Shown piece by piece: positions 4,424-30,603 of a stretch of 53,952 nucleotides of DNA. Position 1 is the stretch's first letter, and every line of letters begins with the position of its first letter. The notes under the pieces are model-generated. The model was not told the origin of the DNA. It did no database searches and worked only from the letters and a program-made list of their open reading frames with translations. The stretch covers positions 1 to 53,952 of the forward strand of contig JAEOTM010000183.1 in the NCBI GenBank assembly GCA_016839815.1, written 5' to 3'. The stretch is from Candidatus Hodarchaeota archaeon. Lineage in GTDB: Archaea; Asgardarchaeota; Heimdallarchaeia; Hodarchaeales; Hodarchaeaceae. The position numbers were made by a program, and so were the translations under genes.

Positions 4424-5179
4424 TTGACATTCAAACGAGCCCTTGTCCGTGAACCAAGTAATTCCTTCCCTAGTTGTATCTCTTCCCATCCCTTGCATCA
4501 TTCTGTTAGTGTTAAGCAAGCTAAGCTTCAGCACCAGAAGTACTGTGAGGTACTTACCGAATTAGGATTAGAAGTATTCAAACTCCCACCAGATGATAGA
4601 TTTCCTGATAGTTGTTTTGTTGAAGATACAGCTATAATTCATAAGGATAGGGTACTCATTTCAAGGTTAGGAGCAAGAAGTAGACGAGGAGAAGAGCATG
4701 AAATTCGAGAATATCTTGATAAATATTTGAAAGTCAAAGAAGCTGCTGCCCCTGCTACTATTGAAGGAGGAGATGTCATCCATCTTCCCCAGTATCTGAT
4801 TTCTGGTATTTCACAGCGAACCAACAAAGAAGGAGTAATGCAACTCGCCGATTGGCTCCAATTAGAGGTGAAACCTATTCTTGACAAGAGTATTATTCAT
4901 CTCAAAAGTCATGTTACGTTTCTAGAGAGAAATACTGTTATTGTAAATGACTCCATCTCCAATCATCCAGTATTTAGATCATTTGCTAAAATTGTTGTAC
5001 CTACAGATGAAGAATATGCTGCTAATACACTTACAATTAATGGAGTAGTATTAATACCGGATGGATATCCTAAAACAGCACAAAAGCTCATGAATGCAGG
5101 ATTTGAGATTATTCAATTAGAGATGTCTGAATTTCAAAAGTGTGAAGGAGCTCTCACCTGTTTATCTCTACTCCTCTAA
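4424..5179 (+). CDS. Dimethylargininase (DDAH) / amidinotransferase family
   Basis: FPDSCFVEDTA, SRRGE, IEGGDV, HLKS and EGALTCLS, with the Asp-His-Cys catalytic residues present. Confidence 0.9.
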   Translation: MTFKRALVREPSNSFPSCISSHPLHHSVSVKQAKLQHQKYCEVLTELGLEVFKLPPDDRFPDSCFVEDTAIIHKDRVLISRLGARSRRGEEHEIREYLDKYLKVKEAAAPATIEGGDVIHLPQYLISGISQRTNKEGVMQLADWLQLEVKPILDKSIIHLKSHVTFLERNTVIVNDSISNHPVFRSFAKIVVPTDEEYAANTLTINGVVLIPDGYPKTAQKLMNAGFEIIQLEMSEFQKCEGALTCLSLLL

Positions 5180-5194
5180 TCTTCAGAAATTCAC

Positions 5195-6637
5195 TTATTC
5201 AAAACGTTTCCAGTCAAAAGTTTTTTGGATGTTAGTACTCCAGCGAAAAAGTACATCTGGACCAATGTAATAACTAGCTTTTGCACCAGGTATTTCATTT
5301 TCAAGAGAGGCAAATCTGTACAATAATGTATGTGTCCAAGAGAATGGAATAGTAACTATTCCTGATATTAATCCCTTTTGATCGTTATAAAAGATGTTCG
5401 TAAAAGGAAAGAACTTAAAATGCTGGAGTAACCGATAAACATATTCTTTCGGAATCATTGAGATGTAAAAATACACCATTGAACCAAGGCCAATATTAGA
5501 AAATGTTGGAAATCGGTGGATGATTTTATTACGGAGTAAATGCTTCCAATCCGAATTTATATTCTTTCTTGATCGGTTTAGTTGTTTTGCTAAGGACTTG
5601 TCATTCATTGTAGAATATTGATTAATGAGGCCTAACAATTTAGCTTCATCAGATGTTATCTGAAAATAGTCGTATTCAGGATCTAAATTGTACTCGAATC
5701 CTATATTTCCAACAATTAACTCTCGTAACCAACTTCCACCAGGTTGAAGTAATGGAGGTTTTAACTTCCATCTTTCTTCAGGCTTAGAAGTCAATCCTCC
5801 AAGGTTCCAATTTCGATACTGTTTTGTCGCAATAGTAAATGCCCCAGAAGATATTTCAAATGATTCTTCAAAACGTGATATAATTTCTGAATCCGTGTAT
5901 GGATATTGAACTATAGCAACATATTTTTGTAAGGGGGGTGCAGGGAAATTATAGAGGACGTATTCTTTTACAGTATCAGAGATATCTCTCATTTTTTTTT
6001 CATGTAGGAAAATAGTTGTTTGATATCCAATCTTCGCCATATCCACGGCATAAAACATACTGAGAATGTAACATTCGCCAAGAAAATCTAATCTACTTGT
6101 AACCGTTCTGACATCTTGACGTGTACCATATGCAAGTTCTCGTAATTTAGGGAATTTATCGAGGGATTTTGAGAAATGTGGATTCGCCAGCTTTTGAAGG
6201 ATTTTAATATCCGTTTTACGTAATGAATAGTTATAATCTCTCGAAAGGTGTAAAATAGTTTTTCTAAATTGTTCTAAACTGGGATTGTTTTGTAATTGTT
6301 CATAAATCTCCCCTTCCTCTATATTTGCTTCTTCTAATATTAGTTTCCAAGGTATAAGAACATTTAAACCGTCCATATGGAATAAAATGGAATGAAATTT
6401 AGTCGAATATGATTCTACGAAATGCATGTATTCTAGGGACTTCCATTTCTTGTAAAAGGGAAGAGTCATTTCCTGATACACTTTTTCTGCTAGTTTGCTC
6501 CAATTACGCCAGATTCTATAATTAGTGGTTTCCGAATTCATTAATTCGCGTATATTATCCCAGATTCCGAGAAAATCATCTATGAATTCCTTTTCTTGCT
6601 GTAAATTAATCATTTCAGCAGGATCTTTTAGAAACAT
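5195..6637 (-). CDS. Tandem winged-HTH / Lrp-AsnC-like transcriptional regulator (480 aa)
   Basis: Two HTH-like segments (TDIKILQKL...LRELAYGTRQDVRTVTSRLDFL and DEAKLLGLI...KSLAKQLNRSRKNINSDWKHL). Each is followed by an Lrp-type linker (VDMAKIGY and PTFSNIGL). Confidence 0.65.
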   Translation of the reverse strand: MFLKDPAEMINLQQEKEFIDDFLGIWDNIRELMNSETTNYRIWRNWSKLAEKVYQEMTLPFYKKWKSLEYMHFVESYSTKFHSILFHMDGLNVLIPWKLILEEANIEEGEIYEQLQNNPSLEQFRKTILHLSRDYNYSLRKTDIKILQKLANPHFSKSLDKFPKLRELAYGTRQDVRTVTSRLDFLGECYILSMFYAVDMAKIGYQTTIFLHEKKMRDISDTVKEYVLYNFPAPPLQKYVAIVQYPYTDSEIISRFEESFEISSGAFTIATKQYRNWNLGGLTSKPEERWKLKPPLLQPGGSWLRELIVGNIGFEYNLDPEYDYFQITSDEAKLLGLINQYSTMNDKSLAKQLNRSRKNINSDWKHLLRNKIIHRFPTFSNIGLGSMVYFYISMIPKEYVYRLLQHFKFFPFTNIFYNDQKGLISGIVTIPFSWTHTLLYRFASLENEIPGAKASYYIGPDVLFRWSTNIQKTFDWKRFE

Positions 6638-6794
6638 ACAGAATACCCATTTTTACATTGATTTATTGAATTTAGACTAAACCAATATTCCATCCTTTTA
6701 TGCATTTTTTCTCCTTCATTAATTTTATCTATTTTGTTATCTAACAATCTACATGAGTCAATAAAATTGAATTAAACATACGGATGAACTAAAA

Positions 6795-6962
6795 ATGAGA
6801 AGAAAATTAAGAAATCGCTTCCAAAAAGTGAAACCAACTCAAAATGGCTTGTATAAACTAATACCTCTAGCTTTCATCGTTTTCGTACTACTAATGACTA
6901 TAGGCATTGGAATTGCAGATCCTACTTTCCCTCCTATACCTCCACCACCTGGTGGCAATTAA
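6795..6962 (+). CDS. Small protein (55 aa): signal peptide/TM helix followed by a Pro-rich tail; putative secreted peptide precursor
   Basis: Manual translation gives MRRKLRNRFQKVKPTQNGLYKLIPLAFIVFVLLMTIGIGIADPTFPPIPPPPGGN*. It is below the track size cutoff and ends 25 nt before the next ATG. Confidence 0.7.
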   Translation: MRRKLRNRFQKVKPTQNGLYKLIPLAFIVFVLLMTIGIGIADPTFPPIPPPPGGN

Positions 6963-6987
6963 AAAACAATACATAGTATTAATCGGA

Positions 6988-7314
6988 ATGTCTAAAATGT
7001 CAGGGACAGTGTTATCTCAAAATCCAGCAATTAATCGTGGATTACTTTCAGCTCTATTACCGTTAACTTTCATACATGATTTTCAGCTTCAGGAATCAGA
7101 AATAATAGTTAAATTTTCCGCTAAATTCGAGGAAATACTACCTCAAATTCAATCATTCCTCGATGCACTTGGTGAAATTGCTGAAACACAATTCTACTTT
7201 GAGATGAAGACGAAAAAGATCGGTGTTCTGAAGGTTTATGATGCAAATCCTCTCCTATTGAATGAACACCTGTTGTTTGAACAGACGATTGATTGTGAAA
7301 TCAGAGAAAAATAA
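6988..7314 (+). CDS. Hypothetical protein (about 108 aa)
   Basis: Track ORF 6907..7314. The start was moved to in-frame ATG 6988 because the TTG extension overlaps the 55-aa ORF. Confidence 0.6.
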   Translation: MSKMSGTVLSQNPAINRGLLSALLPLTFIHDFQLQESEIIVKFSAKFEEILPQIQSFLDALGEIAETQFYFEMKTKKIGVLKVYDANPLLLNEHLLFEQTIDCEIREK

Positions 7315-7413
7315 TCTTATGCTGCTTAATAGCTTAAAATGCTGTGGTTAACTCATGTTTCCCAAAAAACCAGAACGTAACATGGAGTACGTCTTGTATA
7401 CAGAAATAAAATC

Positions 7414-8352
7414 TTGGAAACATCGACGAACCAAAGACAAGTGTCTTTCGAGGGAATTCCCCCAACCTACCAAGAAAACCAGGGGATGATTATGACCCAT
7501 CAGGAATTAACCACTGAAAAAGTATTTACCAACCCGTTTCAATCATATCTCATTACAGATGGTGATGTAATTCTATATTACACACAGTCATTTGCAGAAA
7601 TTAGTGGATTGAATCCATCACAATCATCCCCTCGTCTATCACAGCTCAGTACTCAAGATGTCAGCTTCAATCTCCTTGAGGATTCCCATCTCATCTATAA
7701 TGTCTATTCATGTCATAAAAACTCACCTATGCCTCTCCCTTATCAACAAATGTGGGTTGAAGACCTTATTCATGAATTACGCACTGCTAGCCTCATAATG
7801 GGTCTTGGAACGCGATTATTACAGGAGACATCAAGTTCCTCGCTTCCCTATCTTTTCAAGACCCTTCGCACAGCTTCCCATCGTCAAAAGATGTGTACTT
7901 TGATAGCCTCTGACTTCATTCAACTTCTTAGTGCTCCTCCTCCTTTGGCTCCTTCAACCTTATCTGGTGTGATTTCCAAAAGCTGGGGTTCTTCTCCTGA
8001 TCCTACCCGCGTCAGATTTCATGTTCAAGCAAGTAATGGTTATCATGAACCATATTTCAATCCAAATCCAATAATCTATGGGAGTGAGAATTTTCTGGCT
8101 AACTTTTGTATTACTACACTCACCTGGTTTGAATCGGAACCCGTTACCATTGAATTAGAACAGATGAATGGGATATCAACCCGATTAAGTTTTTGCATTC
8201 CCTTTGATCATTTCCTATCGTCATTACAGAGTTATCGTTTAATTAACCATTATTTTCAGTATATTGCTGCATACTTTAATTTACGCTGCTGGTTAACCCA
8301 GTCAACGTTCAACATTATTTTCCCTCTTTCAATTAAACAAAAAACAGCTTAA
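7414..8352 (+). CDS. Degenerate sensor histidine-kinase-like protein (possible PAS-like region plus HisKA-like H-box)
   Basis: DLIHELRTASLIMGLGTRLL resembles the HisKA H-box. YLITDGDVILYYTQSFAEISG resembles a PAS start. No N/G1/G2 ATP boxes are recognisable, and the start is uncertain. Confidence 0.45.
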   Translation: METSTNQRQVSFEGIPPTYQENQGMIMTHQELTTEKVFTNPFQSYLITDGDVILYYTQSFAEISGLNPSQSSPRLSQLSTQDVSFNLLEDSHLIYNVYSCHKNSPMPLPYQQMWVEDLIHELRTASLIMGLGTRLLQETSSSSLPYLFKTLRTASHRQKMCTLIASDFIQLLSAPPPLAPSTLSGVISKSWGSSPDPTRVRFHVQASNGYHEPYFNPNPIIYGSENFLANFCITTLTWFESEPVTIELEQMNGISTRLSFCIPFDHFLSSLQSYRLINHYFQYIAAYFNLRCWLTQSTFNIIFPLSIKQKTA

Positions 8353-8849
8353 TTCGGAGGAATGCTTTCATCAGGATCTTTATATCCATAATATGCTCCC
8401 ATATCAACTGCAATGTTATTTATTCGTAAATACGTAAACAACTGTCCTGAATGGAACCATTCATGGCCGATTTCTTCGAAAATTTCATGGTACAAAGAAG
8501 TTTTCTTTTCCTGATAGAAGAACTTTACATTTTTCTCTCGGGCATCTTCCAAATGTTCATTTAGATATGCAATTATTTTTTCAAGGCCCTCATCATAAAG
8601 TTTTACTAATCCTTGCGCATTCAATGGAAAATTTTGTTTTTCAAGTTCTCCAAATTCTTCTCCTGACTTGAGTTCTCCCTTGAACAATTCCAAGAGCATC
8701 ATTGGACTCGATGCCAAGTGATTAGCTAATTCAGCGGTACTACGCATTCCCGAACCGGGTTTCCAATCCCATATATCAAGGGGAATCATTTTCAGTAAAT
8801 AGACTATGCCTAAACGACGTTTTTGCAGGACTGCAATTAGTTCCTCCAT
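8349..8849 (-). CDS. DinB/YfiT family protein
   Basis: WKPGSGMRSTAELANHL and HEWFHSGQLFTYLR His pattern. Confidence 0.85.
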   Translation of the reverse strand: MEELIAVLQKRRLGIVYLLKMIPLDIWDWKPGSGMRSTAELANHLASSPMMLLELFKGELKSGEEFGELEKQNFPLNAQGLVKLYDEGLEKIIAYLNEHLEDAREKNVKFFYQEKKTSLYHEIFEEIGHEWFHSGQLFTYLRINNIAVDMGAYYGYKDPDESIPPN

Positions 8850-8927: not shown

Positions 8928-10478
8928 ATGGAAATTCCGGACAGCCTTTTTCAAGGATTGACTATAGATAAACGGGATTATCAAATCCAAGCAGTTCAAG
9001 AGATTCTTTCTCTTCATACAGCTAATCAATCTGTCTTGTTAAACTATCCTTATGGGACAGGGAAGACTATTATCGCTCTTTTAGTACTTTTAAAGCTTAA
9101 AACATCTCAACCAGGGAAACAATTTATTTTTACTTCTGCTCGTGAAGCTGCAGGGTTACGTTGTCGTCAAGCAGTCGAAATGGGCAAAAAATTTGGATTT
9201 GTAGATAAGCTGGGGTATCTGTTTAATCCTCAAACGGGAGGAAAAGGATTAAATCTCTCACAAAAGATGAAAATGTACCAGGCCTCTCAGGTAATCTTTT
9301 CTCCTATTCAGACACTTATGAATGACCGTTTCCAGATTAAGTCACGATTGAAAACAGATATTTTCTCAAATATGTCATTGTGTATCGTTGATGAAGCTAC
9401 AGATCTTCTCGCTCGTTCTATGTCAGGATTTCGTTTATCTAAATATTTCCAAGAATTGTTTCAAGTACGTAAAAAGAATAACTTCCCTATTCTAGCTATG
9501 TCTGGAACCAGAGATCAGCATAAGGCGAAATTCATTGTACAAGTGCTTGGGGAAAATGCTCATCAGATGTCTCGTTTGGATCTTTCACCCTATGAGACAA
9601 TCACACAAATTAATCCCATCAACCGTGAAGATTATATTCACAATGATCAAACCATCTCCAATCTTCTTACTAAACCCGTTGGTAGCATTCAAGAAATTCT
9701 TGATCCTAATTTAAGTCGTTTGGAAATTGTCAAGCTTTCATATGGAGGAGCGTTAGATCGATTACGGGGTGACAACCGTACTTATCCTATTAGATTGGGA
9801 AAGTACAAAGTCGAAAATAACGAAGATCGTGTCCAACTCGTGAATGCATTTGCTTTACTTTTTAAACTGACTCATGCACGATTACTGCTACTTGAAAGCA
9901 CACCAGGAGAATATCTAAAATACACAAAAAAGGAAGAGAATAAAGAGGTCTTTCAATCATTACTTGAGGTAAGTTCAGAGATTATCTCTTATCGCGTTGA
10001 TCTCCCTCGATATGATAAGCCTGAGGAAAAAACCACTCGTGGACTCATCCATCCTAAGGTTGAAAAAGCTATTAATATTATTCATGAACATATTATTCGA
10101 GGAGCTAAAGTTCTCTTATTTACACGCTATCTAGCCTTAGGTGATCAATTGAAGATGATATTGGAAACATTACAATATCCAGGAGTAAAATATCTTTCTG
10201 GTAAGACGAAAGAGGAATCAAGACATATTATTCTTGATCAATTCCGAAAAGAGGATGTCAATGTATTGATATTCACTCCAGTTGGCGGAAGAGGGTTGAA
10301 TTTAGAAGAAGCAGATGTTGTTATTCATTTAGATATTACAAGTAACCTTGATGATATGACACAGCGTCGAGAACGCGCTAGAGGTTGTATCGAATATGTC
10401 CTTGTTTTGCAGGGAACAAGCGAGGAAGGTAAGGTCAAAGAATACGCGAAATTAACCAATGCCTCTACTGTGAAATAA
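8928..10478 (+). CDS. Superfamily 2 (Hef/ERCC4-like DExD/H) helicase with divergent motifs
   Basis: RDYQ Q-motif, YGTGKT, IVDEAT, MSGT, HPK, LLFTRY, GGRGLNL and QRRERAR. Confidence 0.8.
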   Translation: MEIPDSLFQGLTIDKRDYQIQAVQEILSLHTANQSVLLNYPYGTGKTIIALLVLLKLKTSQPGKQFIFTSAREAAGLRCRQAVEMGKKFGFVDKLGYLFNPQTGGKGLNLSQKMKMYQASQVIFSPIQTLMNDRFQIKSRLKTDIFSNMSLCIVDEATDLLARSMSGFRLSKYFQELFQVRKKNNFPILAMSGTRDQHKAKFIVQVLGENAHQMSRLDLSPYETITQINPINREDYIHNDQTISNLLTKPVGSIQEILDPNLSRLEIVKLSYGGALDRLRGDNRTYPIRLGKYKVENNEDRVQLVNAFALLFKLTHARLLLLESTPGEYLKYTKKEENKEVFQSLLEVSSEIISYRVDLPRYDKPEEKTTRGLIHPKVEKAINIIHEHIIRGAKVLLFTRYLALGDQLKMILETLQYPGVKYLSGKTKEESRHIILDQFRKEDVNVLIFTPVGGRGLNLEEADVVIHLDITSNLDDMTQRRERARGCIEYVLVLQGTSEEGKVKEYAKLTNASTVK

Positions 10479-10594: not shown

Positions 10595-11992
10595 TCAGAA
10601 TCGATCCCGATTTTCTGAACCTTTCGTTTGGTCGACTAGATCAGATCCACAAAAGGCGCAGAATTTGGCATTAGGTAATACTAAGTTTCCACACGACACA
10701 CAACGTTGACTACTTTCAGAAATAACAGTGGGAACGAAGTCTGGACGACGAAATGATCTCTGGGTTTCAAATTCATGAACCTTAGTGGAAACAAAGTTTG
10801 GTTCGCTAATTGGGTCCGTTTTGAATACAAATAGACCATAGATAATAATCAGCACTCCTACAACAATAATTTGGATGAAATAAAAGAATAATATTTCTGT
10901 ATCAGTGTTGGGATTAAGGAACTCTCTGAAAAGATCAAGGGAAATAGGCACAATTCCAGTAATGGCAATGAAGATTGCTAAAAAGAAACAGAATTTGAGT
11001 AATGCACCAGACTTATCTTTTGTCTCAGTAATAATTTGCATCCAAATTGGTTTGCTTTCCTCATCTTTCTCTTGAAAGTATTTTACAAGTAAATATATAG
11101 AAATACCTGCTCCTACTGCAAGAGCAATGAATATCCAATACATCATGAATAATGTAATAAGAGGAGAGCCTACATCGGGAAGATCTATATCAGAAAATTG
11201 ACCTATCAGCCCAAAACTGTTTGTCCCAGCATGAAAAAGGATTGGCCATAAAATATTCCGGGTTCGAAGATATAAGAAACCTAGTAATAATCCCCCAAAT
11301 AAAGTACCTAGGAAATGCTCCATAGCAAATCCTACCGATCCATCATAAAGATCTGTGGGTGTGTGTTGCAATGAAAACATCAAGCTAGAAAAAATCAATG
11401 CCCACATCTGGCCGACACCTCTTCGTTCAAATAAAGGGATTAATGTGCGACGAAATACTAATTCTTCCCAAATTGGTGCCCCAATAGCTAATACAGTGAA
11501 AAATAAAATCAGAAAGACTGGATCATTGATGGTTACTGATGTAGGATTAATCGCTTCATAAGGAGAATCTGTTGTAAGACCTCCTTCGTCTAAGAGGAAA
11601 TCCAAGGGTGTAATAAAGATAAAAATCAAAAAAATGTTGATTGCATGCAAGAGATAAGTAATAAGAGGGAAATGACTTTTAGGACCTTTGGGAGTCGTTT
11701 TTACCTCTGGTTCTATCTTCTTTTTCCTATATAAAATTGTAAATCCAAGGATAGCTCCCATCTGCGCTCCTAAGTTTAAAATTAAATTCAATATAGGTTC
11801 TATTTGGTTTGCATTGGCTTCTGTAACCTGTATCAGATCATAAACGATTGCATAGGAAATAAAGAATCGCATTATATTACCTAGGAAATCAAAACACGCT
11901 ACTAAGACCAAGATTAATGTAAAAACATAAATTATATCCTTTGAACTTGTTTCCATTTGTTTTTCTGGAGTATTTTCTACTGAATTTTCCAT
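10595..11992 (-). CDS. CPBP (CAAX/Abi) intramembrane glutamic protease with C-terminal zinc ribbon
   Basis: APIWEELVFRR, FSLQH and ILFHAGTN motifs, many TM helices, and C-terminal CVSCG...FCAFCG. Confidence 0.88.
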   Translation of the reverse strand: MENSVENTPEKQMETSSKDIIYVFTLILVLVACFDFLGNIMRFFISYAIVYDLIQVTEANANQIEPILNLILNLGAQMGAILGFTILYRKKKIEPEVKTTPKGPKSHFPLITYLLHAINIFLIFIFITPLDFLLDEGGLTTDSPYEAINPTSVTINDPVFLILFFTVLAIGAPIWEELVFRRTLIPLFERRGVGQMWALIFSSLMFSLQHTPTDLYDGSVGFAMEHFLGTLFGGLLLGFLYLRTRNILWPILFHAGTNSFGLIGQFSDIDLPDVGSPLITLFMMYWIFIALAVGAGISIYLLVKYFQEKDEESKPIWMQIITETKDKSGALLKFCFFLAIFIAITGIVPISLDLFREFLNPNTDTEILFFYFIQIIVVGVLIIIYGLFVFKTDPISEPNFVSTKVHEFETQRSFRRPDFVPTVISESSQRCVSCGNLVLPNAKFCAFCGSDLVDQTKGSENRDRF

Positions 11993-20718: not shown

Positions 20719-21795
20719 ATGAAGCTAAGAGAATATATTTTAAAAAGATTGATTCTGTTAATCCCGGTTCTCTTTGGGGTTAGTATTGTTACATTCATTT
20801 TGAGTGATAGTGTGGGCGATCCTGTCGCTGCTTATATCGGTGCAACTGAAGCTGATAAAATTACTCAGGCACAAATTGAGACATTAAGAGCGCGATTAGG
20901 ACTAGATAGACCAATTCTAGAGCGTTTTTGGGTTTATGTAACTCGACTTCTGCAAGGTGATTGGGGACGTTCGCCAACATTACAGAATCGACCTGTACTT
21001 GAGATAATTGCTGATAGATTACCTGCCTCTGCAGAATTAGCTGTTTATTCTATGATCTTAGCAATAGCATTCGGGATACCCTTAGGAATAATATCTGCCG
21101 TAAAAAAGGATCAAATGGCAGATCAGGTATCACGACTTACTGCACTAAGCGGAGTATCAATGCCTATTTTTTGGCTTGGATTGATGGTCCAAATCATCCT
21201 ATTCAATTTTAACACTTTCATGAATGATGCCGATCTTCCCTTCAATATTCCGTATCATGAACGATTAACATTAAACAAATATTCAATGCCTCAAGACATA
21301 TTATTTGGGAATTTTGGACCCACTGGGTTTTTATTAATAGACTCGTTACTCTCCTTCGATATACCACTATTTTTTGACGCTTTTCTACACATTTTTGCGC
21401 CTTCATTCTGCTTATCATGGGTGCAAATGGCTATAATTACAAGAATGACAAGAATGGCAATGCTTGAAACAATGAAGAAAGATTTTATCCTTTTGGCCCG
21501 ATCCAAAGGATTAACCGAGCGTGTAATTATTTATCGACACGCACTACGAAATGCAATAATCCCTACATTAACGGTAGCAGGATTGGCTCTTGCTGGATTA
21601 ATGACTGGCGCAGTACTTACTGAAACAGTCTTTGATTGGCCAGGTTTAGGCTGGTGGGCAGTTGCATCGGTCGCACGCCTAGACACAGCTGCTATTCAGG
21701 GTTTTGTGATCATTACTGCTTTGATTTATGTATTAAGTAATTTGGCAGTTGATATTCTCTATGCAGTTGTTGATCCACGAATTAGATTTGATTAA
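20719..21795 (+). CDS. dppB: Dipeptide/oligopeptide ABC permease B
   Basis: YILKRL, LGLDRP, LLQGDWGRS, SMPIFW, ARSKGL, HALRNA and ETVFDWPGLG. Confidence 0.95.
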   Translation: MKLREYILKRLILLIPVLFGVSIVTFILSDSVGDPVAAYIGATEADKITQAQIETLRARLGLDRPILERFWVYVTRLLQGDWGRSPTLQNRPVLEIIADRLPASAELAVYSMILAIAFGIPLGIISAVKKDQMADQVSRLTALSGVSMPIFWLGLMVQIILFNFNTFMNDADLPFNIPYHERLTLNKYSMPQDILFGNFGPTGFLLIDSLLSFDIPLFFDAFLHIFAPSFCLSWVQMAIITRMTRMAMLETMKKDFILLARSKGLTERVIIYRHALRNAIIPTLTVAGLALAGLMTGAVLTETVFDWPGLGWWAVASVARLDTAAIQGFVIITALIYVLSNLAVDILYAVVDPRIRFD

Positions 21796-21818
21796 TAGAG
21801 TGAAAGTAGGTTACACAC

Positions 21819-23738
21819 ATGACATCAGATACAGAATATTTAGGTGAAGAGATTGTCGAAGATGCTTTTTCGTTCAGGATATCACTAAAAGCACGCTGGA
21901 AAGAGATAAAATATGCCATTTCTCTTTTACGCAAAAGTCCGTTATTCATTGTCGGATTTTTTGTAATATTTACATTAGTAGCATTAGCCATCTTTGCTCC
22001 AGTAATTGCTGCTTATGAGCCACGAGAATTCGATCTCAATATCAAGAATGAACCCCCACTCACTAAAGATGAGCGAACGACTTTAAAATGGACAGGTTTC
22101 TCATCTATGAACAAGCTTTTTGATCTTGATCCCGAGATGAAAGCGCGCACCTGGGTTGCTGATTTTACAAATGATTCTAAATTAGACTTTCTCATTGGCA
22201 CAGCAGAACCTTCATTACTTTTCTATGAGAACACAGGGGTTGGAGGGGTCAATCAATCAATTGAAAATCTTGATTGGGACCTAAGGGAAAACTACTTCAA
22301 CGTGCCTCTTCCCGTAGGTATTACTAGAATTGTTCCCACCGCTGGCGACTTAGATGGAGATAATGACACTGATGTGATAATTGGGGGTAGTGATGGACAT
22401 CTTTATGTAAGTCTTAACAATGGAACCCCTGTAGCACCTGTGTGGACTGAGTTCTCTATCCTGCGTAATTCAAACGGCCAAATATTCAATTTCACAGGTC
22501 AAGCCAATCCAACACTCATCGATTTTGATTCTGGAACGGAAAAAACATATGATAACGGATCGAATTTATTGGATTTAGTCGTTGGTTCCGATATTGATCC
22601 AGAAACAGGTAGATATCAGATCTATACTTATATGAATAAAGGGAATAAAACTCATTATTCGTTTGGAGTGCTTCGGAGTGGCTTCGTTGGTGGACAACCA
22701 GTCCCTTATGGTCCCAAAAATGTCACCGGAAAATTGCTTGAGATAAATCCAACGGCTGCTACCTCTGGGTCTTTGAGAATCTATTTTGCGATTATTAACA
22801 ATGATAAACGTCCAGATTTGATTTTAATGTTTGATTCAGGGAAATACGAATATTATACTGCTTCAAGTCTCGTAAGAGATCCACAATTCCTTCCATTAGA
22901 TAAATCAAAGGCTTCTGTTTTATTTGAATTTCCTGCACTCGATGAAGAACCATTTTTAGACTTTCGATGGACGGATTTTACGGGAGATAATGCCAGTGAT
23001 GTAATAATTTTCGCTAATAATGGTTCCGTTATCTATAATTTCCAATTCTACGAAGTCGATGGAAGATTCCATTGGTTAGGAACAGATGAGCAAGGGGGAG
23101 ATATATGGAGCAGAATTGTCTGGGCTCTGCGTACAGACTTTTTTCTAGCAATTTGGGTGGTATCAGTTGCTTCAGTCATTGGAACAATTATAGGAGCCAT
23201 AGCGGGATATTTCGGAGGTTGGGTTGATAATTTAATGATGCGAATTACGGATATATTTTTCGCATTCCCAGGACTAATCCTCGCAATGTCCATTGCCGCT
23301 GCATTAGGTCCCAGCCTATTCAATCTTTCTATTGCTTTGATTATCGTGTGGTGGTCTGGTTATGCACGGATTGCGCGGGGTCAGGTTATAAGTGAAAAGA
23401 ATAGACTCTATGTTGAAGCAGCTAGATCTATCGGAATGGGTGACCTGCGGATTCTTTTCAGGCATATTATTCCTAACAGTATATATCCGCTGATTGTTGC
23501 TGCTACTCTTGATCTTGGTGGTGTTGTTCTAACAGCGGCAGGACTTAGCTTTATAGGATTTGGAGCTCAACCTGGAGATGCAGAACTGGGAGTTATGATT
23601 GCTTCTGGACGAGGATTTATCCTATCAGCACCATGGCTAGTATTCTTCCCAGGAATCTTCATATTCTTGATAGTACTTGCATTTAATCTTGTTGGAGACG
23701 GTGTTAGAGACGTTATGGACCCCAAATTGCGTCGGTAA
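21819..23738 (+). CDS. dppC: Dipeptide/oligopeptide ABC permease C with inserted FG-GAP/VCBS repeat domain
   Basis: HWLGTDEQGGDIWSR, AGYFGGWVD, YVEAARSIG and GDGVRDVMDPK. An insert of about 335 aa carries DxxxDxxxD repeats. Confidence 0.92.
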   Translation: MTSDTEYLGEEIVEDAFSFRISLKARWKEIKYAISLLRKSPLFIVGFFVIFTLVALAIFAPVIAAYEPREFDLNIKNEPPLTKDERTTLKWTGFSSMNKLFDLDPEMKARTWVADFTNDSKLDFLIGTAEPSLLFYENTGVGGVNQSIENLDWDLRENYFNVPLPVGITRIVPTAGDLDGDNDTDVIIGGSDGHLYVSLNNGTPVAPVWTEFSILRNSNGQIFNFTGQANPTLIDFDSGTEKTYDNGSNLLDLVVGSDIDPETGRYQIYTYMNKGNKTHYSFGVLRSGFVGGQPVPYGPKNVTGKLLEINPTAATSGSLRIYFAIINNDKRPDLILMFDSGKYEYYTASSLVRDPQFLPLDKSKASVLFEFPALDEEPFLDFRWTDFTGDNASDVIIFANNGSVIYNFQFYEVDGRFHWLGTDEQGGDIWSRIVWALRTDFFLAIWVVSVASVIGTIIGAIAGYFGGWVDNLMMRITDIFFAFPGLILAMSIAAALGPSLFNLSIALIIVWWSGYARIARGQVISEKNRLYVEAARSIGMGDLRILFRHIIPNSIYPLIVAATLDLGGVVLTAAGLSFIGFGAQPGDAELGVMIASGRGFILSAPWLVFFPGIFIFLIVLAFNLVGDGVRDVMDPKLRR

Positions 23739-23759
23739 TGCATCTAGGAGATCACAGAA

Positions 23760-24803
23760 ATGACAGAAACAATACCTTATACAGAGACTCAAGATATCAT
23801 TTTGGATATTAAAAATCTGAAAGTTAATTTCTACACCTATGAAGGCGTCGTTAAAGCTTTAGATGGAATAGATTTATCAATAATTAAGGGTGAAAGCTTC
23901 GGACTAGTCGGAGAAACTGGCTGTGGCAAATCTGTTACAGTTAGATCTGTAATGCGACTGATTGAATCCCCAGGTAAAATTGTTGATGGTGAGATTTTTT
24001 ACAAAGGTGCTGACATCTTACAATTAAAAGAAAAAGAAATTCGGAAATTACGGGGTGCAAAAATGACTATGATATTTCAAGATCCGATGACATTTCTAAA
24101 CCCTGTTATCCAGATTGGTGAGCAAGTTTCAGAAATGTTTCTTATCCATCAAAAAATTCAGAAAGAGATCCTAGATAATAAAAAAAAGTTATCTAGATAC
24201 TTGAAAGAGAAAGTAGTTGAAATATTTGAGTTGGTCAAACTCCCCGACGCCGCCGAATTATTTAAACGATATCCTCATGAGTTATCAGGAGGGATGAGGC
24301 AAAGAGTTCTAATAGCAATGTCCATCGCAGCAGATCCTGATATTATTATTGCTGATGAAGCCACCACCGCACTAGACGTAACTATTCAGGCACAAATCCT
24401 CAATTTGTTGAATAAATTAAAAAAGGATTTGGGTCGAACACTAATATTCGTCACCCATAATCTAGGCATAGTTGCTGAAATGTGTGACCGAGTTGCCGTC
24501 TTATATGGAGGTCAGGTTGCTGAAGTCGCCACAACCAAGGAAATCTTTACCGATCCTATTCATCCATACACTCAAGGATTATTGAAATCAATACCACTTC
24601 TCCACAAACCTAAAGAGATCTTGAATTCTATTGATGGAGTAGTTCCCAATCTGGTTAATCCTCCCTCAGGATGCAGATTCCATCCTCGATGCCCTCTAAA
24701 AGAGGATATTTGTGTCCAAGAACGACCAAAATTGGTTCAAGTGCTTCCTGGGCACTGGGTCCATTGCCATGTCCGAGGACGTGAACACACAAATAAAATG
24801 TGA
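23760..24803 (+). CDS. dppD: Dipeptide/oligopeptide ABC ATPase D
   Basis: GETGCGKS, YPHELSGGMRQR, IADEATTALD and GCRFHPRC. Confidence 0.95.
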   Translation: MTETIPYTETQDIILDIKNLKVNFYTYEGVVKALDGIDLSIIKGESFGLVGETGCGKSVTVRSVMRLIESPGKIVDGEIFYKGADILQLKEKEIRKLRGAKMTMIFQDPMTFLNPVIQIGEQVSEMFLIHQKIQKEILDNKKKLSRYLKEKVVEIFELVKLPDAAELFKRYPHELSGGMRQRVLIAMSIAADPDIIIADEATTALDVTIQAQILNLLNKLKKDLGRTLIFVTHNLGIVAEMCDRVAVLYGGQVAEVATTKEIFTDPIHPYTQGLLKSIPLLHKPKEILNSIDGVVPNLVNPPSGCRFHPRCPLKEDICVQERPKLVQVLPGHWVHCHVRGREHTNKM

Positions 24804-25843
24804 GAAAAATGAGTACAAGTGAGAATCAAACCCAAATAAGTGACTTAAATCCCGAGCATGAGACGGATGAGACGGACTTCATATTAAGTGCGAGGAATTT
24901 AGTGAAATATTTCCCAATAACCAGTGGAATCATGTCTCGGGTCGTCGGTCATGTTCATGCAGTAGATGATGTTTCCTTTGATGTTCCCAGAGGGAAAACC
25001 ATTGGAGTCGTAGGTGAATCTGGATGTGGAAAAACAACACTTGGAAGAACAATTTTACGATTAAGTCAACCCACCTCTGGTGATGTTTTTTTTGAAGGAG
25101 ATAACATTGCTAAAATGAGTCTTAGGAAATATCGAAAATATCGTAGACAGATGCAAATCGTATTTCAAGACCCCTATGCAAGTCTTAATCCCAGAATGAT
25201 GGTTAAAAACATTTTAAGGGAACCTTTGCTCGTTCACAAGACCCTGCGTAAAAGACAGATTAATAATTACATTCTCAGAGTAATGAGAGAAGTGGGATTA
25301 GATCTTGAACATTTAAACCGATTCCCACATGAGTTCAGCGGTGGCCAGAGACAGCGGATTTGTATCGCTCGTGCATTAGTCCTGAATCCTCATTTTGTGG
25401 TATTGGATGAACCAACAGCTTCAGTTGATGTGTCGGTACAAGCTCGTGTCTTAAATTTGCTGAAACGTCTTCAGAAAATACGTAATTTGACGTATATGTT
25501 TATCTCTCATGATCTGTCAGTTGTTACTCATATGAGTGATATTGTTATGGTAATGTATCTTGGAAAGATCTTGGAAATTGGACCAAAACGAATTTTCACC
25601 TTGAAAGGATCTGAAGTTCACCCTTATACCTTAGCTCTTGGATCTGCATTACCGATTCCTGATCCTCTATACGAGAAAAAGCAGATCATTCTTCGTGGAG
25701 ATGTCCCTAATCCTGCGAATCCACCCCCAGGATGTCGTTTTCACACAAGATGTCCTGAAGCCAGGCAGATATGCACAGAAAAAGTACCTGAATTGGAAAA
25801 GACTGGATCGTTCCATTACATAGCCTGTCATTTCCGAGAATAA
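24800..25843 (+). CDS. dppF: Dipeptide/oligopeptide ABC ATPase F
   Basis: GESGCGKT, FQDPYASLNPR, FPHEFSGGQRQR and GCRFHTRC. The start may be ATG 24809. Confidence 0.95.
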   Translation: MRKMSTSENQTQISDLNPEHETDETDFILSARNLVKYFPITSGIMSRVVGHVHAVDDVSFDVPRGKTIGVVGESGCGKTTLGRTILRLSQPTSGDVFFEGDNIAKMSLRKYRKYRRQMQIVFQDPYASLNPRMMVKNILREPLLVHKTLRKRQINNYILRVMREVGLDLEHLNRFPHEFSGGQRQRICIARALVLNPHFVVLDEPTASVDVSVQARVLNLLKRLQKIRNLTYMFISHDLSVVTHMSDIVMVMYLGKILEIGPKRIFTLKGSEVHPYTLALGSALPIPDPLYEKKQIILRGDVPNPANPPPGCRFHTRCPEARQICTEKVPELEKTGSFHYIACHFRE

Positions 25844-25860
25844 TCAAAAGGGAAGAACAA

Positions 25861-26112
25861 ATGAGTACTGATAAAAAAGAGGAGCCTATTCTCCCAACAA
25901 ATGATCCTTTTCTTTCAGCTCCAATCCAATCCCAGTATCTAAGCCTCACATCGGAACATACAGAAAGTGATCTAGCAGGAACTCAACTCGACTTCAAAGA
26001 CTATATTGCACTGTTTATTGCCCTCATACAAACAGTTTTTCTTCCCTTACTTCTAATTATGGGGATTCTATTTCTTCTGTCTTTTATTTTCCATCAATTT
26101 CGAGCTACTTGA
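25861..26112 (+). CDS. Small membrane protein at the end of the dpp operon
   Basis: 83 aa with a C-terminal hydrophobic hairpin, 17 nt after dppF. Confidence 0.65.
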   Translation: MSTDKKEEPILPTNDPFLSAPIQSQYLSLTSEHTESDLAGTQLDFKDYIALFIALIQTVFLPLLLIMGILFLLSFIFHQFRAT

Positions 26113-26154
26113 AAGAAAGAATCCTCATTCTTCATATTTCACTTTATTTGTTAC

Positions 26155-27237
26155 TTAATTCCGAATTCTTGGATCTATCAATCCATACAAGATATCAACA
26201 GCTAGATTAACAAGAACATAAATGAGGGTTGAAAAGACCACAAAACCGTTGATCGTTGGCATATCAAGACTTTTAACTCCAGCCAGCATGAGACTTCCTA
26301 ATCCAGGCCAGTCATATACAATTTCAACGAATATGACCCCCGTTAATAAGTTGGCAAATACAATACTTACAATAGTCGTTACCTGTGCAGCAGCATTCTT
26401 GAGGGCATGACGATAGATTATTATTTTTTCTGGTAACCCCTTTGCTCTTGCCAAGAGAATATAATCCTCTTTTAAAACTTCCACCATGGCATTTCTTGTC
26501 ATTCTAGAGATTATCAGAATTTGAGAAAAAGCGATAATAAGTGCTGGTGTAATTAAATGAAAAAATGCGTCAATAAATAAGAGGAGATCAGGTGCAAGGA
26601 GACTATCTATCATAAGGAATCCTGTTGTAGGTAATAAACCGAAAAGAATACGATTAGGGTACGTTAATTCCCAGATATTGTATCTGAAATGGTATGGGGC
26701 CCAATTCATTATAAAGGAGTCTTTAGATGTTAGTGCTATCGTAAAAAATACCTGAATTATCAGGTATTGTACAATTATAGCAAGTAGAAATGAGGGGATG
26801 GACATCCCAGTTATTGATACTCCTTTCAATAAAATGTTTACTTTTGGTCGCTTCTCTGTTGCTGTGTATACTCCTGCTGGGACACCTATTATTACCGTAA
26901 TGATCATTGCAGTCAAACCTAATTCTATGGTTGCAGGAAAAGCATTTTGAAGATGTTTGAGAACTGGAACTTCTCTTCCCCCTATATAGCTATTTCCCCA
27001 GTCTCCTTTTAACAGGTTAAGTATGTAATCTAGAAATCTAACTGGCCAAGGTCTATTTAATCCATATCTTTCCCTCAATTCGGCTTCGAGTTCTTCTGTT
27101 AATACCGTATTCGGAGTGACATAGGCTGCAAGAGGATCTCCCGCAATATCGCTTAGGAACCATGTAATAAAACTAATTCCGAATAACATCGGTAGAAGAA
27201 AAATAATGCGTTTTATTAGGTAGCTTCTGTACCTCAT
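26155..27237 (-). CDS. dppB: Second dipeptide/oligopeptide ABC permease B
   Basis: YLIKRI, YGLNRP, LLKGDWGNS, ARAKGL, HALKNA and DPRIR. Confidence 0.93.
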   Translation of the reverse strand: MRYRSYLIKRIIFLLPMLFGISFITWFLSDIAGDPLAAYVTPNTVLTEELEAELRERYGLNRPWPVRFLDYILNLLKGDWGNSYIGGREVPVLKHLQNAFPATIELGLTAMIITVIIGVPAGVYTATEKRPKVNILLKGVSITGMSIPSFLLAIIVQYLIIQVFFTIALTSKDSFIMNWAPYHFRYNIWELTYPNRILFGLLPTTGFLMIDSLLAPDLLLFIDAFFHLITPALIIAFSQILIISRMTRNAMVEVLKEDYILLARAKGLPEKIIIYRHALKNAAAQVTTIVSIVFANLLTGVIFVEIVYDWPGLGSLMLAGVKSLDMPTINGFVVFSTLIYVLVNLAVDILYGLIDPRIRN

Positions 27238-27409
27238 TACTGATTGGGTAGGTTACTTCCTTTAAATCTTTTTTCGTATAGACAGAATAAACCTCTTTGG
27301 ATTTATAGGATTAAAAATTAAAAATTCACCAAAAAGAAAAATTAAGATAGATGGTTTATACAAAATTGATCTTAAATTAAAGAGAAAAAAAGAAAAAGAG
27401 GTAGAAGAC

Positions 27410-29629
27410 TTAACGTCTTCTCTTACGATAGAAAATAGCCATTACCGAAGCTGCAATTAAGAATGCTGCAAATTCGAATCCAGGTCCACCGTCATCGGTA
27501 GGTTCGTCAGTTGTCGTTGGTTCTGGTTCAGTTTCTGTTCCCGTGGGGGTGGTGTCAGGTTCAGTGGTGGTAGTGGTGGTTTCAGGTTCGACGAATTCGT
27601 ATTTCTCTAATCGCTCCCAGGGTTGATATTCGTTTCTCATGGGGTTGGTAACACTTTCGTAGTCACCTTGGATCCAGTCTTTCCGAACGCCAAGACCATA
27701 TCCTTGGTACAGTGGCATGAATGGATAGTCTAATGAGGCATTCCTTTCAATGTCAAAGTACAATTGTTCACGAACTGCTTGATCTGGTTCAGCTTTAGCG
27801 TCATCAATCATCTGGTTAACAACGGGATTTGTGTAGTTAGTTTGGCCAGCGAAGTATGTTTTGTAGAATGGATCAACATAGTTGTCAGGGTCTGCGTAAT
27901 CAGGTGCCCATCCAATTAAGAATGCTGGGAGGTCCAGTTTAATGGATAAGTATGTAGGCCAGCTAATTTCTCTGATGCTGATACTAATTCCGACATTCAT
28001 TCCTTCAATAGCACTTTCTAACAAGAGCGCAGCAGCTCGACGGACGGTATTACCTTCGTTGAAAGCAATAGTAATTGCGCCTTTCCAGCCTAGTGTTTCA
28101 AAGAGGGATTTTGCACCATCGGGATCGAATACGGGTTGATAACCATCATCGATCAAAGTGTCTAAATGGCCCATAAGACCCTCAGGAATACATCCTTGAG
28201 GAATTATACCAAATCCATTCAATACTTCAGCAATGTAAGCTTCACCATCTAAGGATTTAATAAAGGCTTGACGGAATAAATAGTTCGCAAATGGATTGTT
28301 ATGAACTGCTCTATCATCGGAGAAGGGGGGATTTCCAACTGCTTCACTCCATGCATAAGGATACCAATCACTGGCATTATATGTGGAAAACGATGCTTCT
28401 TCCATCCATTCAGAATCTATGACATCTTTTTGATTCATACCCAAAAACATAACAGTCAATCCAGGATTTTGGTTTACAGTAACACCATCAATGATGGGGT
28501 CAAGAGTACCATCAGCAAGGAAAGCGTCTATATCTATGATTTCGGGGGCAAGTTCAGTCATTCCAGAGGCAAAATCAGTTTCACCTAGTTGTAAATCAAG
28601 TAAACGGGTGGTTGGTACATTGACTGTCTTGATCAAGACAGTATCTACGGCATTTGGCCATGTGCTACCACCTTGTCCACTGACGAAACCTTCCCAAAGT
28701 TCATTCTTTTCTAGCTTGATTGCTTGACCAAATTGGGTTTCAGATGGAACGAGGTAGTAAGGTCCACTTCCACAACCAGATAGGGTCATAGCTTCATGAC
28801 GATAAGAACTATCAACACCAGTGGAGGGAACAACACCAGAGTCTAGGGGATCCCATGCTGGGTCGAAACCAAGCTTGTCAACCATAATTTCAGTGACGTT
28901 CTCGCCAACGAACCAATCGTTAAAGGAAAATTGACCTGAGGTATTATCTGCTAGAGTTCCTGTTCCTGAATCCTGTGTATAGGATGCTGGTGCATTTTCT
29001 GCAATCCATACAGGGTTCACAACGACACCTGCATTAAATGCAAAGATGGTAACTGCAGCTGCATAAGCAAATTCAAGATTAACTCGAACTAAATCATCAG
29101 CAAGTACTTCTACACCGCCAGCAGCAATGTAATCTTGTGCTTCAGATATATTGAGGTCTTGAGCGGAATTGGCACCTGAAATCAGACCATCTAACATCCA
29201 ACCATATCCACTTGGATCGGCCATAATGTTTGTACGATCAATGGAGTATTTTACGTGCCATGCATTGATTTCAATGCCTGTTGATGCTCCTGTTTCTGGG
29301 AGAACGAAATAGTGACCTGGTTCAATTGTGAAGTTGATTGATTGTCCGTCAGGGGCGACAGCCCAGCTTGACGCGACTTCACCTTGAAGATCACTAGGAT
29401 TATGACCGTATGTAATCAAAAATTCATACATACCATCAACTATTCCACCACCAAAGGTTTCATAGCTGCTGCCTGGGTCAAGTGTTTGTGGTTCGGAAAT
29501 TGTTTCGATAATCAATGTATCAGGATAATTGACTTGTGAAACACTTGCAACCACTGGACTTGCGGCATTTGCTAAGAAAACTAAGGTAGTGAAAAACGCA
29601 TAAAGCGTAATTTTACTTTTTAGTTTCAT
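27410..29629 (-). CDS. dppA: Peptide ABC substrate-binding protein (family 5) with Thr-rich linker and PGF-CTERM-like anchor
   Basis: Signal peptide, PQTLDPG, GSGPY and GWAPDYADPDNY. The C-terminus is PETTTTTT...GGPGFEF-TM-YRKRRR. Confidence 0.92.
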   Translation of the reverse strand: MKLKSKITLYAFFTTLVFLANAASPVVASVSQVNYPDTLIIETISEPQTLDPGSSYETFGGGIVDGMYEFLITYGHNPSDLQGEVASSWAVAPDGQSINFTIEPGHYFVLPETGASTGIEINAWHVKYSIDRTNIMADPSGYGWMLDGLISGANSAQDLNISEAQDYIAAGGVEVLADDLVRVNLEFAYAAAVTIFAFNAGVVVNPVWIAENAPASYTQDSGTGTLADNTSGQFSFNDWFVGENVTEIMVDKLGFDPAWDPLDSGVVPSTGVDSSYRHEAMTLSGCGSGPYYLVPSETQFGQAIKLEKNELWEGFVSGQGGSTWPNAVDTVLIKTVNVPTTRLLDLQLGETDFASGMTELAPEIIDIDAFLADGTLDPIIDGVTVNQNPGLTVMFLGMNQKDVIDSEWMEEASFSTYNASDWYPYAWSEAVGNPPFSDDRAVHNNPFANYLFRQAFIKSLDGEAYIAEVLNGFGIIPQGCIPEGLMGHLDTLIDDGYQPVFDPDGAKSLFETLGWKGAITIAFNEGNTVRRAAALLLESAIEGMNVGISISIREISWPTYLSIKLDLPAFLIGWAPDYADPDNYVDPFYKTYFAGQTNYTNPVVNQMIDDAKAEPDQAVREQLYFDIERNASLDYPFMPLYQGYGLGVRKDWIQGDYESVTNPMRNEYQPWERLEKYEFVEPETTTTTTEPDTTPTGTETEPEPTTTDEPTDDGGPGFEFAAFLIAASVMAIFYRKRRR

Positions 29630-30294
29630 TTTGTGAGTACACCTACAAAATATTTCTTTGTATCTTTTAGATATAACCTTGTATTCCTGAAAAGTGTTAA
29701 TTAGACTGCCAGATTATAAATTAAGTATAATATAACAGTGGCTATTGAATAGAATCAAGGTGATACGGGAGTTTATTCCAAAGCAAATCTATAGTTTTTA
29801 GTTTAAATAGATTATGACTGGTGAAGTTCTCAGTTATGACATTCCAATTACACCTAGATAGTATAATGGAATAGTAATTTATTTCATTAGAGGGGTCTAA
29901 TTGAGGATTCTTACGCTAAATGAGGAACTTGATTTAAATAGATGTCCCTTATTTATATTATATAAGTGATTAACTTTGTACTAGATGGGATAATCCATTT
30001 ACTAGGAAACTGGATTAAACTTCATGTTTTAGAATAGATGTTGACCTAGTTCATTTGGTTCATCAAATAAATCATAATTAACTGAGTACGTATTAGTGGA
30101 ATTAGGCAGATTGATTTGTTTCTTTCTCGAAGAAAATATCCCCCTATTATTCTGACTTAAGGTTTTCATGTAATACAAATTGCACTTCCCAGAAAAATTA
30201 AATATAACAAAAATTATAACTCCATTCGGATTTATAAGACATTTACCGTGATTATAAGAAAAACTATGATCTCTCTGCTCATCTTATTTACTTA

Positions 30295-30570
30295 ATGGTG
30301 AAAAATATGCAAATTTCAAAGAAAAATGAACGTTTAATAGTCCAAATTTCCGTTATACTTGCTATACCGATTATCATACTTGCATTAGTATTCTTCTTAG
30401 CTGTTGGAATCCATCAAGACAAAGCAGATTATTATTACAATGGAGGAAGGGTCGCTCTTGCTCAATACTATTCTAATCGAGCGGATGAGGCATTTCTCTA
30501 CAGCATAATATGTGCAGGATTCGCATTTATCTTTCTTAGCACGGCTGTCTTTCTCAAGCGTAGATATTAA
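30295..30570 (+). CDS. Small 2-TM membrane protein
   Basis: Two hydrophobic helices and a basic C-terminus. Confidence 0.6.
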   Translation: MVKNMQISKKNERLIVQISVILAIPIIILALVFFLAVGIHQDKADYYYNGGRVALAQYYSNRADEAFLYSIICAGFAFIFLSTAVFLKRRY

Positions 30571-30603
30571 TTCGCATAAACCTAAGGATAATTGAGTTAA
30601 TCA

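Follow-up and report, generated by a model that had tools for sequence, protein, structure and literature searches.

We describe here a gene pair of the archaeal order Hodarchaeales in which a regulator of tandem Lrp/AsnC architecture is encoded beside, and nearly always divergently from, a small open reading frame (ORF) of about 50 codons. The pair was analyzed at positions 5195 to 8352 of a 53,952-nucleotide stretch from Candidatus Hodarchaeota archaeon (contig JAEOTM010000183.1 of assembly GCA_016839815.1), referred to throughout as the window, and this locus is one copy of a multi-copy, Hodarchaeales-specific gene module. Comparison of sequences and structure models firmly indicates a conserved cognate pair, formed by a predicted DNA-binding protein with two Lrp units and a small, apparently membrane-targeted protein with a diversifying tail that is predicted to face the outside of the cell. 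Our verdict on the module is a new conserved pairing of a regulator with a small protein of predicted export. Peptide signalling at the module is plausible but unproven, and we place the probability of a cognate peptide signal/receptor circuit, with the regulator as responder, at roughly 0.4.

The cassette in the window consists of four ORFs and the spacer that separates the two divergent genes (lengths in amino acids, aa, or nucleotides, nt):

5195-6637, minus strand: regulator, 480 aa
6638-6794, no strand: spacer between the divergent genes, 157 nt of sequence
6795-6962, plus strand: small ORF (peptide ORF), 55 aa
6988-7314, plus strand: orphan protein p106, 108 aa, starting 25 nt past the small ORF
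7414-8352, plus strand: H-box protein with a histidine-kinase fold, 312 aa counted from a TTG at 7414

A sequence-only reading had delineated this arrangement and proposed a quorum-sensing-like circuit for it. All of its features were confirmed where it had placed them, including the AT-rich character of the divergent spacer, which is 75.8% AT against 63.2% for the window. Neither Pfam nor NCBIfam gave a match for the small ORF, p106 or the H-box protein. The sequencing runs listed for 5195-8352 were four DNA runs, which come from a single study of marine sediment, and none of RNA.

Pairing of the regulator with a small ORF

The distribution of the regulator is narrow. As a protein query it was found in all 21 other genomes of the genus, in one of two genomes of the sister family and in none of 37 from the rest of the class, with 1 to 11 matches per genome. 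When 400 genomes of the phylum were searched with a profile of the regulator, 189 gave some match at E <= 1e-5; only that genus and one sister-family genome (G023, E 3e-98) gave matches over most of the profile length, the remainder being single Lrp modules with E values of about 1e-12 to 1e-5. By these sequence criteria the full-length regulator family was found only in Hodarchaeales among the genomes searched.

We gathered 89 loci around regulators, built profiles of five gene families from their ORFs and then counted the occurrences of each. The loci (numbered L, with G for genomes and C for contigs) contain 64 unique full-length regulators, one of which, in L022, lies at a contig end and was set aside to leave 63 testable cases. 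The small ORF adjoins the regulator in 52 of these 63 and is divergent from it in 50, the full set being distributed as follows:

49 of 64: small ORF divergent, 14-250 bp from the regulator
1 of 64: small ORF divergent, overlapped by the called regulator start (L035)
2 of 64: small ORF co-directional with the regulator and immediately following it (L018, L069)
11 of 64: regulator without a small ORF
1 of 64: regulator at a contig end, untestable (L022)

Conservation of the small ORF beside regulator homologues was a test by which the sequence-only reading had proposed to stand or fall, and the pairing survived it. In the fetched loci, none of 81 small-ORF profile matches lies more than 700 bp from a regulator. 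Because these loci had been picked around regulators, the small-ORF profile was also run against the whole genome to which the window belongs. Among its 52273 ORFs of at least 20 aa there were two matches (E 5e-18 for the window copy and 1e-17), each adjoining one of the two regulators of this genome, and the next-best ORF scored E 0.054. The second of these regulators is a paralogue with 21% identity to the first, and it too has a divergent small ORF of like build, ending ...GIADPLEGPYPPIGY.

In public data, each of 32 regulator homologues is entered as 'hypothetical protein' or is unnamed, some with the label Hodarchaeales, and the top homologue bearing an organism name (74% identity) is from 'Candidatus Heimdallarchaeota archaeon B3_Heim'. 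The small-protein family is represented there by 24 proteins of 45-55 aa, all of them 'hypothetical' or unnamed and carrying Hodarchaeales-type labels.

Regulators also occur in tandem arrays, where three to five paralogues share a single small ORF, as in L037 (G001:C14), L039 (G020:C234), L036 and L085. The L037 array additionally has a stand-alone gene for a response-regulator receiver (9158-9637), and some regulator copies carry one in-frame stop and may be pseudogenes.

Fold of the regulator and anatomy of the small protein

The regulator, which is 480 aa long in the window and 448-535 aa among homologues, is assembled from an N-terminal helical domain (about residues 1-130) and two fused Lrp/AsnC-type modules (about 131-276 and 321-480), each comprising a winged helix-turn-helix (wHTH) and a RAM domain, with a conserved Trp/Pro-rich linker (277-320) connecting the two. 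A profile built from 31 homologues matched structures in the PDB over both halves, PH0140 with positions 321-419 (E 6.8e-8) and PH1519 with positions 133-264 (E 6.4e-5), so that the two HTH/Lrp-like modules first read from the sequence are borne out by profile as well as by fold. The AlphaFold model (predicted local distance difference test, pLDDT, 89.4; predicted template modelling score, pTM, 0.88) has as its closest structural match NirDL (4czc), a fused tandem Lrp-like protein (Foldseek E 1e-7), to which it aligns over 270 residues (VIA Z 13.8, root-mean-square deviation 4.2, model residues 141-477). Some 14 single Lrp/AsnC regulators match model residues 324-477 at Z 6.2-7.6 in VIA, and the helical residues 1-125 have no outstanding structural match, with all VIA Z scores <= 5.5.

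Curated family models register the regulator below their thresholds. The only Pfam match is to the wHTH family HVO_A0114 (E 3.7e-4, 20.7 bits against a cut-off of 27.6), and the NCBIfam matches, to Sta1 (E 4e-5) and Lrs14 (E 7e-4), are likewise sub-threshold. The curated Lrp/AsnC models HTH_AsnC-type and AsnC_trans_reg are not reached at cut-off by the window regulator, and one paralogue matches HTH_AsnC-type at E 0.021. At the level of fold, as judged from profiles and the model, the regulator is a member of the Lrp/AsnC superfamily with a new fused architecture, and it is predicted to bind DNA. Each of its halves has the order of PH0140, PH1519/FL11 and LrpA, a wHTH followed by an alpha-beta RAM-type domain; it differs from these proteins in fusing two such modules, in adding a 130-residue N-domain and the Trp/Pro-rich linker, and in falling below the Pfam cut-offs. 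Among orthologous regulators the N-domain (0.39 identity) and RAM1 (0.40) are the most variable parts, and HTH1 (0.61) and the linker (0.58) the least.

The anatomy of the small protein was established from an alignment of 53 unique homologues, 43-79 aa as called. In the window it has a basic N-region with a net charge of +8 over residues 1-21, a hydrophobic core with a hydropathy of 2.94 over 15 aa, a G-I-A motif at positions -3 to -1 that ends with A41 (6915-6917), and finally a 14-residue tail, DPTFPPIPPPPGGN (6918-6959). This organization recurs across the family. The net charge before the core is +2 to +9; the core is led by Leu-Pro and has a median hydropathy of 2.70 over 15 residues; and the uncharged, Pro-free run has a median length of 17 residues and a maximum of 24. 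A polar stretch of small residues follows the core, and small residues occupy both -3 and -1 in 50 of the 53 proteins (G in 38 and A in 7 at -3; A in 38 and G in 10 at -1). Position +1 is Asp in 18 proteins, and position +2 is Pro in 30. The tails themselves are 9-15 residues long, with a net charge of -2 to 0 (never cationic), 29% Pro and 18.5% Gly, and they terminate in Asp in 19 of the 53. Such a leader has the n/h/c anatomy of a type I signal peptide, and its cleavage is predicted. It does not appear to be a general secretion leader because no larger protein matches its profile: there were no longer proteins with this leader in the window genome, and none among 8000 scored candidates from a collection of 5.8 billion proteins, although the latter is weak evidence. 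A similar '...SGIA' junction is present in a large secreted-type protein within the window.

The tails fall into classes that follow the phylogeny of the regulators. A maximum-likelihood tree of 51 paired regulators is divided into two deep clades with 100/100 support: clade I, to which the window regulator belongs, has 24 rows, 22 of them with Pro-rich tails, and clade II has 27 rows, 17 of them with tails that end in a hydrophobic residue followed by Asp or Glu. Tail class changes six times on this tree, against a mean of 22.3 after shuffling. Regulator-peptide co-variation had been put forward as a check in the sequence-only reading, and one part of it stands, in that tail class follows regulator clade; co-evolution is not established by this pattern, in which kin share labels. 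In a partial-Mantel analysis, which is exploratory and confounded by shared descent, the N-region tracks the N-domain and RAM2 of the regulator (partial r 0.29 each) and the tail tracks HTH1 and the linker.

Judging by its substitution pattern, the small ORF is a real gene. The ratio of nonsynonymous to synonymous substitution rates (dN/dS) is 0.165 at a dS of 0.71 in five clade II orthologues, and when clade II is analyzed by part it is 0.074 for the N-region, 0.087 for the hydrophobic part and 0.66 for the tail. In the trio of genomes to which the window copy belongs (G000, G002 and G018) dN/dS is 0.25-0.37, with dS saturated, and substitution is faster in the peptide gene than in the regulator (dN 0.38 vs 0.18). 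Many copies of the small ORF have a Shine-Dalgarno (SD)-like motif 13-16 nt to their 5' side.

Proposed peptide signalling and its alternatives

In the circuit that we consider at odds of about two in five, we infer the membrane topology, the cleavage and release of the tail, its sensing by the regulator, and autoregulation. The small protein would insert with its N-terminus inside and its C-terminus outside, and the tail would be freed by cleavage after the small-x-small motif or at least be exposed outside the cell. The paired regulator would bind the shared spacer and, in response to the peptide, set transcription of both the peptide operon and its own gene, with paralogous cassettes that bear different tails acting as separate channels. 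In the window clade, p106 and the cytoplasmic pseudo-kinase would have been added to the operon and would probably modulate the response. We favour signalling because of the conserved cleavage-type motif, the narrow range of tail lengths, the clade-conserved tail ends, the diversification of the tails and a multiplication of cassettes like that of Rap-Phr. A more specific proposal, in which Hodarchaeales cells communicate through a Sec-exported, Pro/Gly-rich peptide of 9-15 residues that is received by the tandem Lrp/AsnC protein over up to 11 'pherotype' channels, is one that we hold only tentatively and consider doubtful.

By analogy, the module at most resembles the RRNPP cassettes of Bacillota (Rap-Phr, PlcR-PapR and Rgg-SHP among others); it is neither homologous to them nor a member of the group. 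In both cases a small propeptide gene lies beside the gene of a 250-500-aa cytoplasmic regulator, the leader combines a basic N-terminus with a hydrophobic region, the candidate signal lies in a short C-terminal part, and many paralogous cassettes occur per genome. The shp genes are often divergent from rgg, as the small ORF is from the regulator here. The module differs in its receptor, which has the tandem Lrp/AsnC fold with an extra N-domain and no tetratricopeptide repeats (TPRs; none by Pfam at E <= 0.1), in its archaeal host, in the absence of a linked exporter or Opp importer from the loci examined, and in having p106, a longin-like protein and a pseudo-kinase, for which RRNPP systems have no counterpart. 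A publication (PMC10075063) lists five criteria for RRNPP systems, namely a propeptide of 10-100 aa, secretion by Sec (SignalP) or PptAB, a receptor of about 250-500 aa, TPRs, and direct gene neighbourhood. Three of these five, propeptide size, receptor size and gene adjacency, are found at the module and TPRs are not; as to secretion, the sequences offer a candidate leader of n/h/c anatomy, 50 of 53 having a small residue at both -3 and -1. The description 'analogous but non-homologous' that the locus had been given is a fair one because the receptor fold is not that of TPRs. A similar build, for which we make no claim of homology, is that of the plant CLE, CEP and IDA peptides, in which a signal peptide precedes a C-terminal peptide, rich in Pro and some dozen residues long, that acts on surface receptor kinases; the module encodes no surface receptor.

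Several observations weigh against a signalling circuit. Eleven of the 63 testable regulators have no small ORF: eight of these are inside tandem regulator arrays, which still hold one small ORF among their members, and three are solo, among them that of L054, which lies 354 bp from an unscored ORF resembling the small one. In clade II no part of the small protein is under stronger constraint than the cytoplasmic N-region (dN/dS 0.074), and this region carries clade-specific motifs beyond charge that a generic Sec leader would not need. In the window trio, the variability of the tail does not exceed that of the leader (0.25, from one pair, vs 0.31). The distribution of tail classes by clade is clustering and not proof of co-evolution, because relatives share labels. 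RAM domains are known to bind amino acids and are not known to bind oligopeptides. Finally, a Pfam analysis of 59 neighbour proteins from nine paralogous or orthologous loci revealed no recurrent exporter, protease or importer. When the regulator and the small protein were co-folded from family alignments, with no controls folded, the score came to 0.19, below the mark of 0.32; this speaks neither for nor against an interaction.

The strong constraint on the N-region and hydrophobic segment relative to the tail (0.074 and 0.087 vs 0.66) fits at least equally well with a membrane tether or anti-regulator. Here the small protein would stay whole, as a signal-anchor or tail-anchor type, and its N-region would hold the regulator, p106 or both at the membrane; the outside tail would govern the stability of the small protein or sense the surroundings, and the regulator would be freed once the small protein is lost. 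Such an arrangement is consistent with the clade-specific N-region motifs, with a leader that serves no larger protein in the genome (or, on the weak evidence of the 5.8-billion-protein collection, elsewhere), with an uncharged, Pro-free run of 17 residues in the median and up to 24 that is enough to span a membrane, with the extra N-domain of the regulator, and with N-region distances that track this N-domain and RAM2 (partial r 0.29 each, exploratory and among kin that are not independent). A mere anchor would have no need of the small-x-small motif (50/53), the narrow tail of 9-15 residues or the clade-conserved ends (Asp in 19/53), and one small ORF per three to five regulators in the arrays fits a 1:1 tether poorly. 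We regard tethering as somewhat unlikely. It is also conceivable that the peptide is regulated cargo, the regulator being a local transcription factor that answers another ligand, such as an amino acid, and the exported Pro/Gly-rich peptide having a non-signalling role at the cell surface in envelope or adhesion work or in the antagonism of neighbours. Lrp/AsnC regulators bind amino acids and are typically divergent from the operon that they control, no importer is linked to the module in the loci examined, and the FtsX-type ABC genes directly after the peptide-p106 pair in L069 and L070 would fit export or self-protection. Cargo of this kind sits less easily with a strict pairing that is kept even among deeply diverged paralogues, whose regulators may share as little as 21% identity, with a tail class that tracks regulator clade, and with a full-length regulator family that was not seen without its small-ORF partner outside the order; we judge it improbable.

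The structural match to NirDL raises a further alternative, that the 480-aa protein might instead be a siroheme-decarboxylase-like enzyme (NirDL/AhbA-AhbB), with the small ORF incidental. NirDL is indeed the best structural match (Z 13.8; Foldseek E 1e-7) and has the same fused tandem Lrp-like architecture. We attribute the match to this shared architecture and not to enzymology because the sequence profiles match bona fide Lrp/AsnC regulators and not NirDL, because up to 11 copies occur per genome, and because no haem-pathway genes are among the annotated neighbours in the window and 11 related loci. NirDL is moreover the sole fused tandem Lrp-like chain among the matches, the regulator has an additional N-domain, and the small ORF shows both conservation and selection, all of which leaves an enzymatic identity barely credible.

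If Hodarchaeales cells do communicate through such an exported peptide, Archaea would have their first described case of peptide quorum sensing, made from parts unrelated to the bacterial ones. We know of no peptide signalling system in this domain of life, and a full-text literature search returned no description of the module. Quorum sensing in archaea is largely unexplored according to the introduction of a 2025 preprint (PMC12642392). The Hodarchaeales are among the closest known archaeal relatives of eukaryotes, and the order is central to debates on eukaryote origins. The candidate system is compact, conserved and readily made by synthesis, with a single regulator, a peptide of 14 residues and a DNA target of 157 nt, and could be tested in vitro without culture. 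Even without signalling, the module offers a new protein family of about 50 aa under selection, a new fused Lrp architecture and a conserved 19-bp cis element.

Spacer elements, accessory genes and surroundings

The 19-bp element is a composite, CTAGA-N7/8-TYCGNAT, that is common to clade II spacers (for example at L046:4475-4493 and L034:11539-11557). In loci that total 629 kb and are partly redundant, it was located at 18 distinct sites, of which 16 are in regulator-peptide spacers and one is at a regulator start; the whole window genome, which is without a typical clade II cassette, has six. Within spacers the composite faces the peptide gene from about 8-13 nt downstream of a TATA-like box, a location at which archaeal repressors often bind, and it is duplicated in L037 (L037:6322-6366). 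We consider it a candidate operator or promoter-proximal element. In the window clade a different block, TTCATTAATTTTATCTA, is located at 6715-6731; it is common to the orthologous spacers of G002, G018 and G013 and looser across the clade. A strict regular expression for this candidate block gave only six sites, four of them in spacers, and the spacing of the block varies by one base. The window spacer also contains a direct repeat of TTATCTA (6725-6731 and 6737-6743) and an SD-like GGATGA (6782-6787), and Rfam had no match in 5000-8600 at E <= 1.

The commonest accessory gene is p106, which lies within 1 kb after the small ORF in 24 of 40 testable cases. The 108-aa ORF had been described from the sequence as unknown, and this was upheld: there was no family for it in Pfam, NCBIfam or PADLOC and no usable match in the ESM Atlas, and only 53 relatives at E <= 1e-3, nearly all of 70-125 aa and without a functional lead, were present among 1.84 billion representatives. 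Downstream of p106, some cassettes have a further unannotated family of 120-160 aa with a common '...LLSFKDT...' stretch (L046:5514-6002, L046:6507-6884 and L011:3645-4013). A 145-aa protein with weak matches to Longin domains (E 5e-4) follows the small ORF in 6 of 39 testable cases and is absent from the window.

Of 39 testable cases, 11 have the H-box protein encoded after the small ORF, and alignment suggests that the true start of this protein is the ATG at 7486, where the orthologues begin. Its model (pLDDT 75.5) has PAS-like N-terminal strands, a DHp hairpin (113-173) and a CA-like alpha/beta domain, with no transmembrane segments, and the HELRT sequence of the H-box is invariant in all 13 aligned homologues. 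Foldseek returned 146 PDB chains at E <= 1e-3, including HK853, DivL, RetS and LOV-kinases; the DHp of CpxA was matched at E 0.008, and the ESM Atlas gave a lead to HisKA/PAS clusters. Pfam found no HATPase_c domain, no Gly-rich ATP-binding boxes could be recognized in the alignment by eye, and the Asn at an N-box-like position varies. Pseudo-kinase, the term already applied to it in the sequence-only reading, is on this combination of modelled fold and sequence a fair label. With the degenerate histidine kinases DivL and RetS the protein shares the PAS-like/DHp/CA-like fold and a conserved H-box; it differs from them in having no recognizable ATP-binding boxes, no transmembrane sensor and no receiver partner in the cassette, and in its restriction to 11 of 39 cassettes.

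The cassette is flanked in all nine orthologous loci by a DinB-family gene (8349-8849, minus strand) and a DEAD/ResIII helicase gene (8928-10478, plus strand). These neighbours are 62-93% identical across the orthologous loci and the regulator 39-74%, which indicates that the cassette evolves faster than its neighbours. PADLOC gave no defence-system match for the cassette proteins, and the neighbouring helicase gave generic helicase matches only.

A Dpp importer and a CPBP membrane protease had also been noted in the sequence-only reading. Both are present in the window, the Rce1-like CPBP protease at 10595-11992 and Dpp/Opp-type genes at 20719-31895 (three for permeases, three for ATPases and one for a family-5 binding protein), but they are not conserved neighbours. 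The protease occurs in 4 of 14 larger loci, in one of these at 30% identity, so that its presence near the cassette is confined to the closest relatives. Apart from generic ABC ATPase similarity, the 14 larger loci showed no Dpp component; they reach about 7 kb, and the window Dpp genes lie 13-25 kb away. One of the Dpp/Opp permeases (21819-23738, plus strand, 639 aa) has an insertion between its OppC_N and BPD_transp_1 domains with a weak FG-GAP-like match.

The FtsX-type genes of L069 and L070, both clade I paralogues, comprise one permease gene and two ABC ATPase genes directly after the peptide-p106 pair (L069:9592-13878 and L070:1170-5771); the FtsX-type gene of the window (32769-35522) is far from the cassette. 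The gene directly downstream of the regulator in one subgroup of clade I encodes a DUF7388 protein (E 1e-14; L068:5969-6748 and L019:2881-3837). One paralogous cassette of G001 has a full-length actin homologue (Pfam Actin E 1e-132; L069:4523-5701, minus strand) at a distance of 1.2 kb. At the edge of the window, an ORF on the minus strand (2-1738) that runs off the window start encodes a ParA/MinD-type ATPase (AAA_31, ParA) fused to a Roc/Ras small GTPase (Roc E 3.9e-20).

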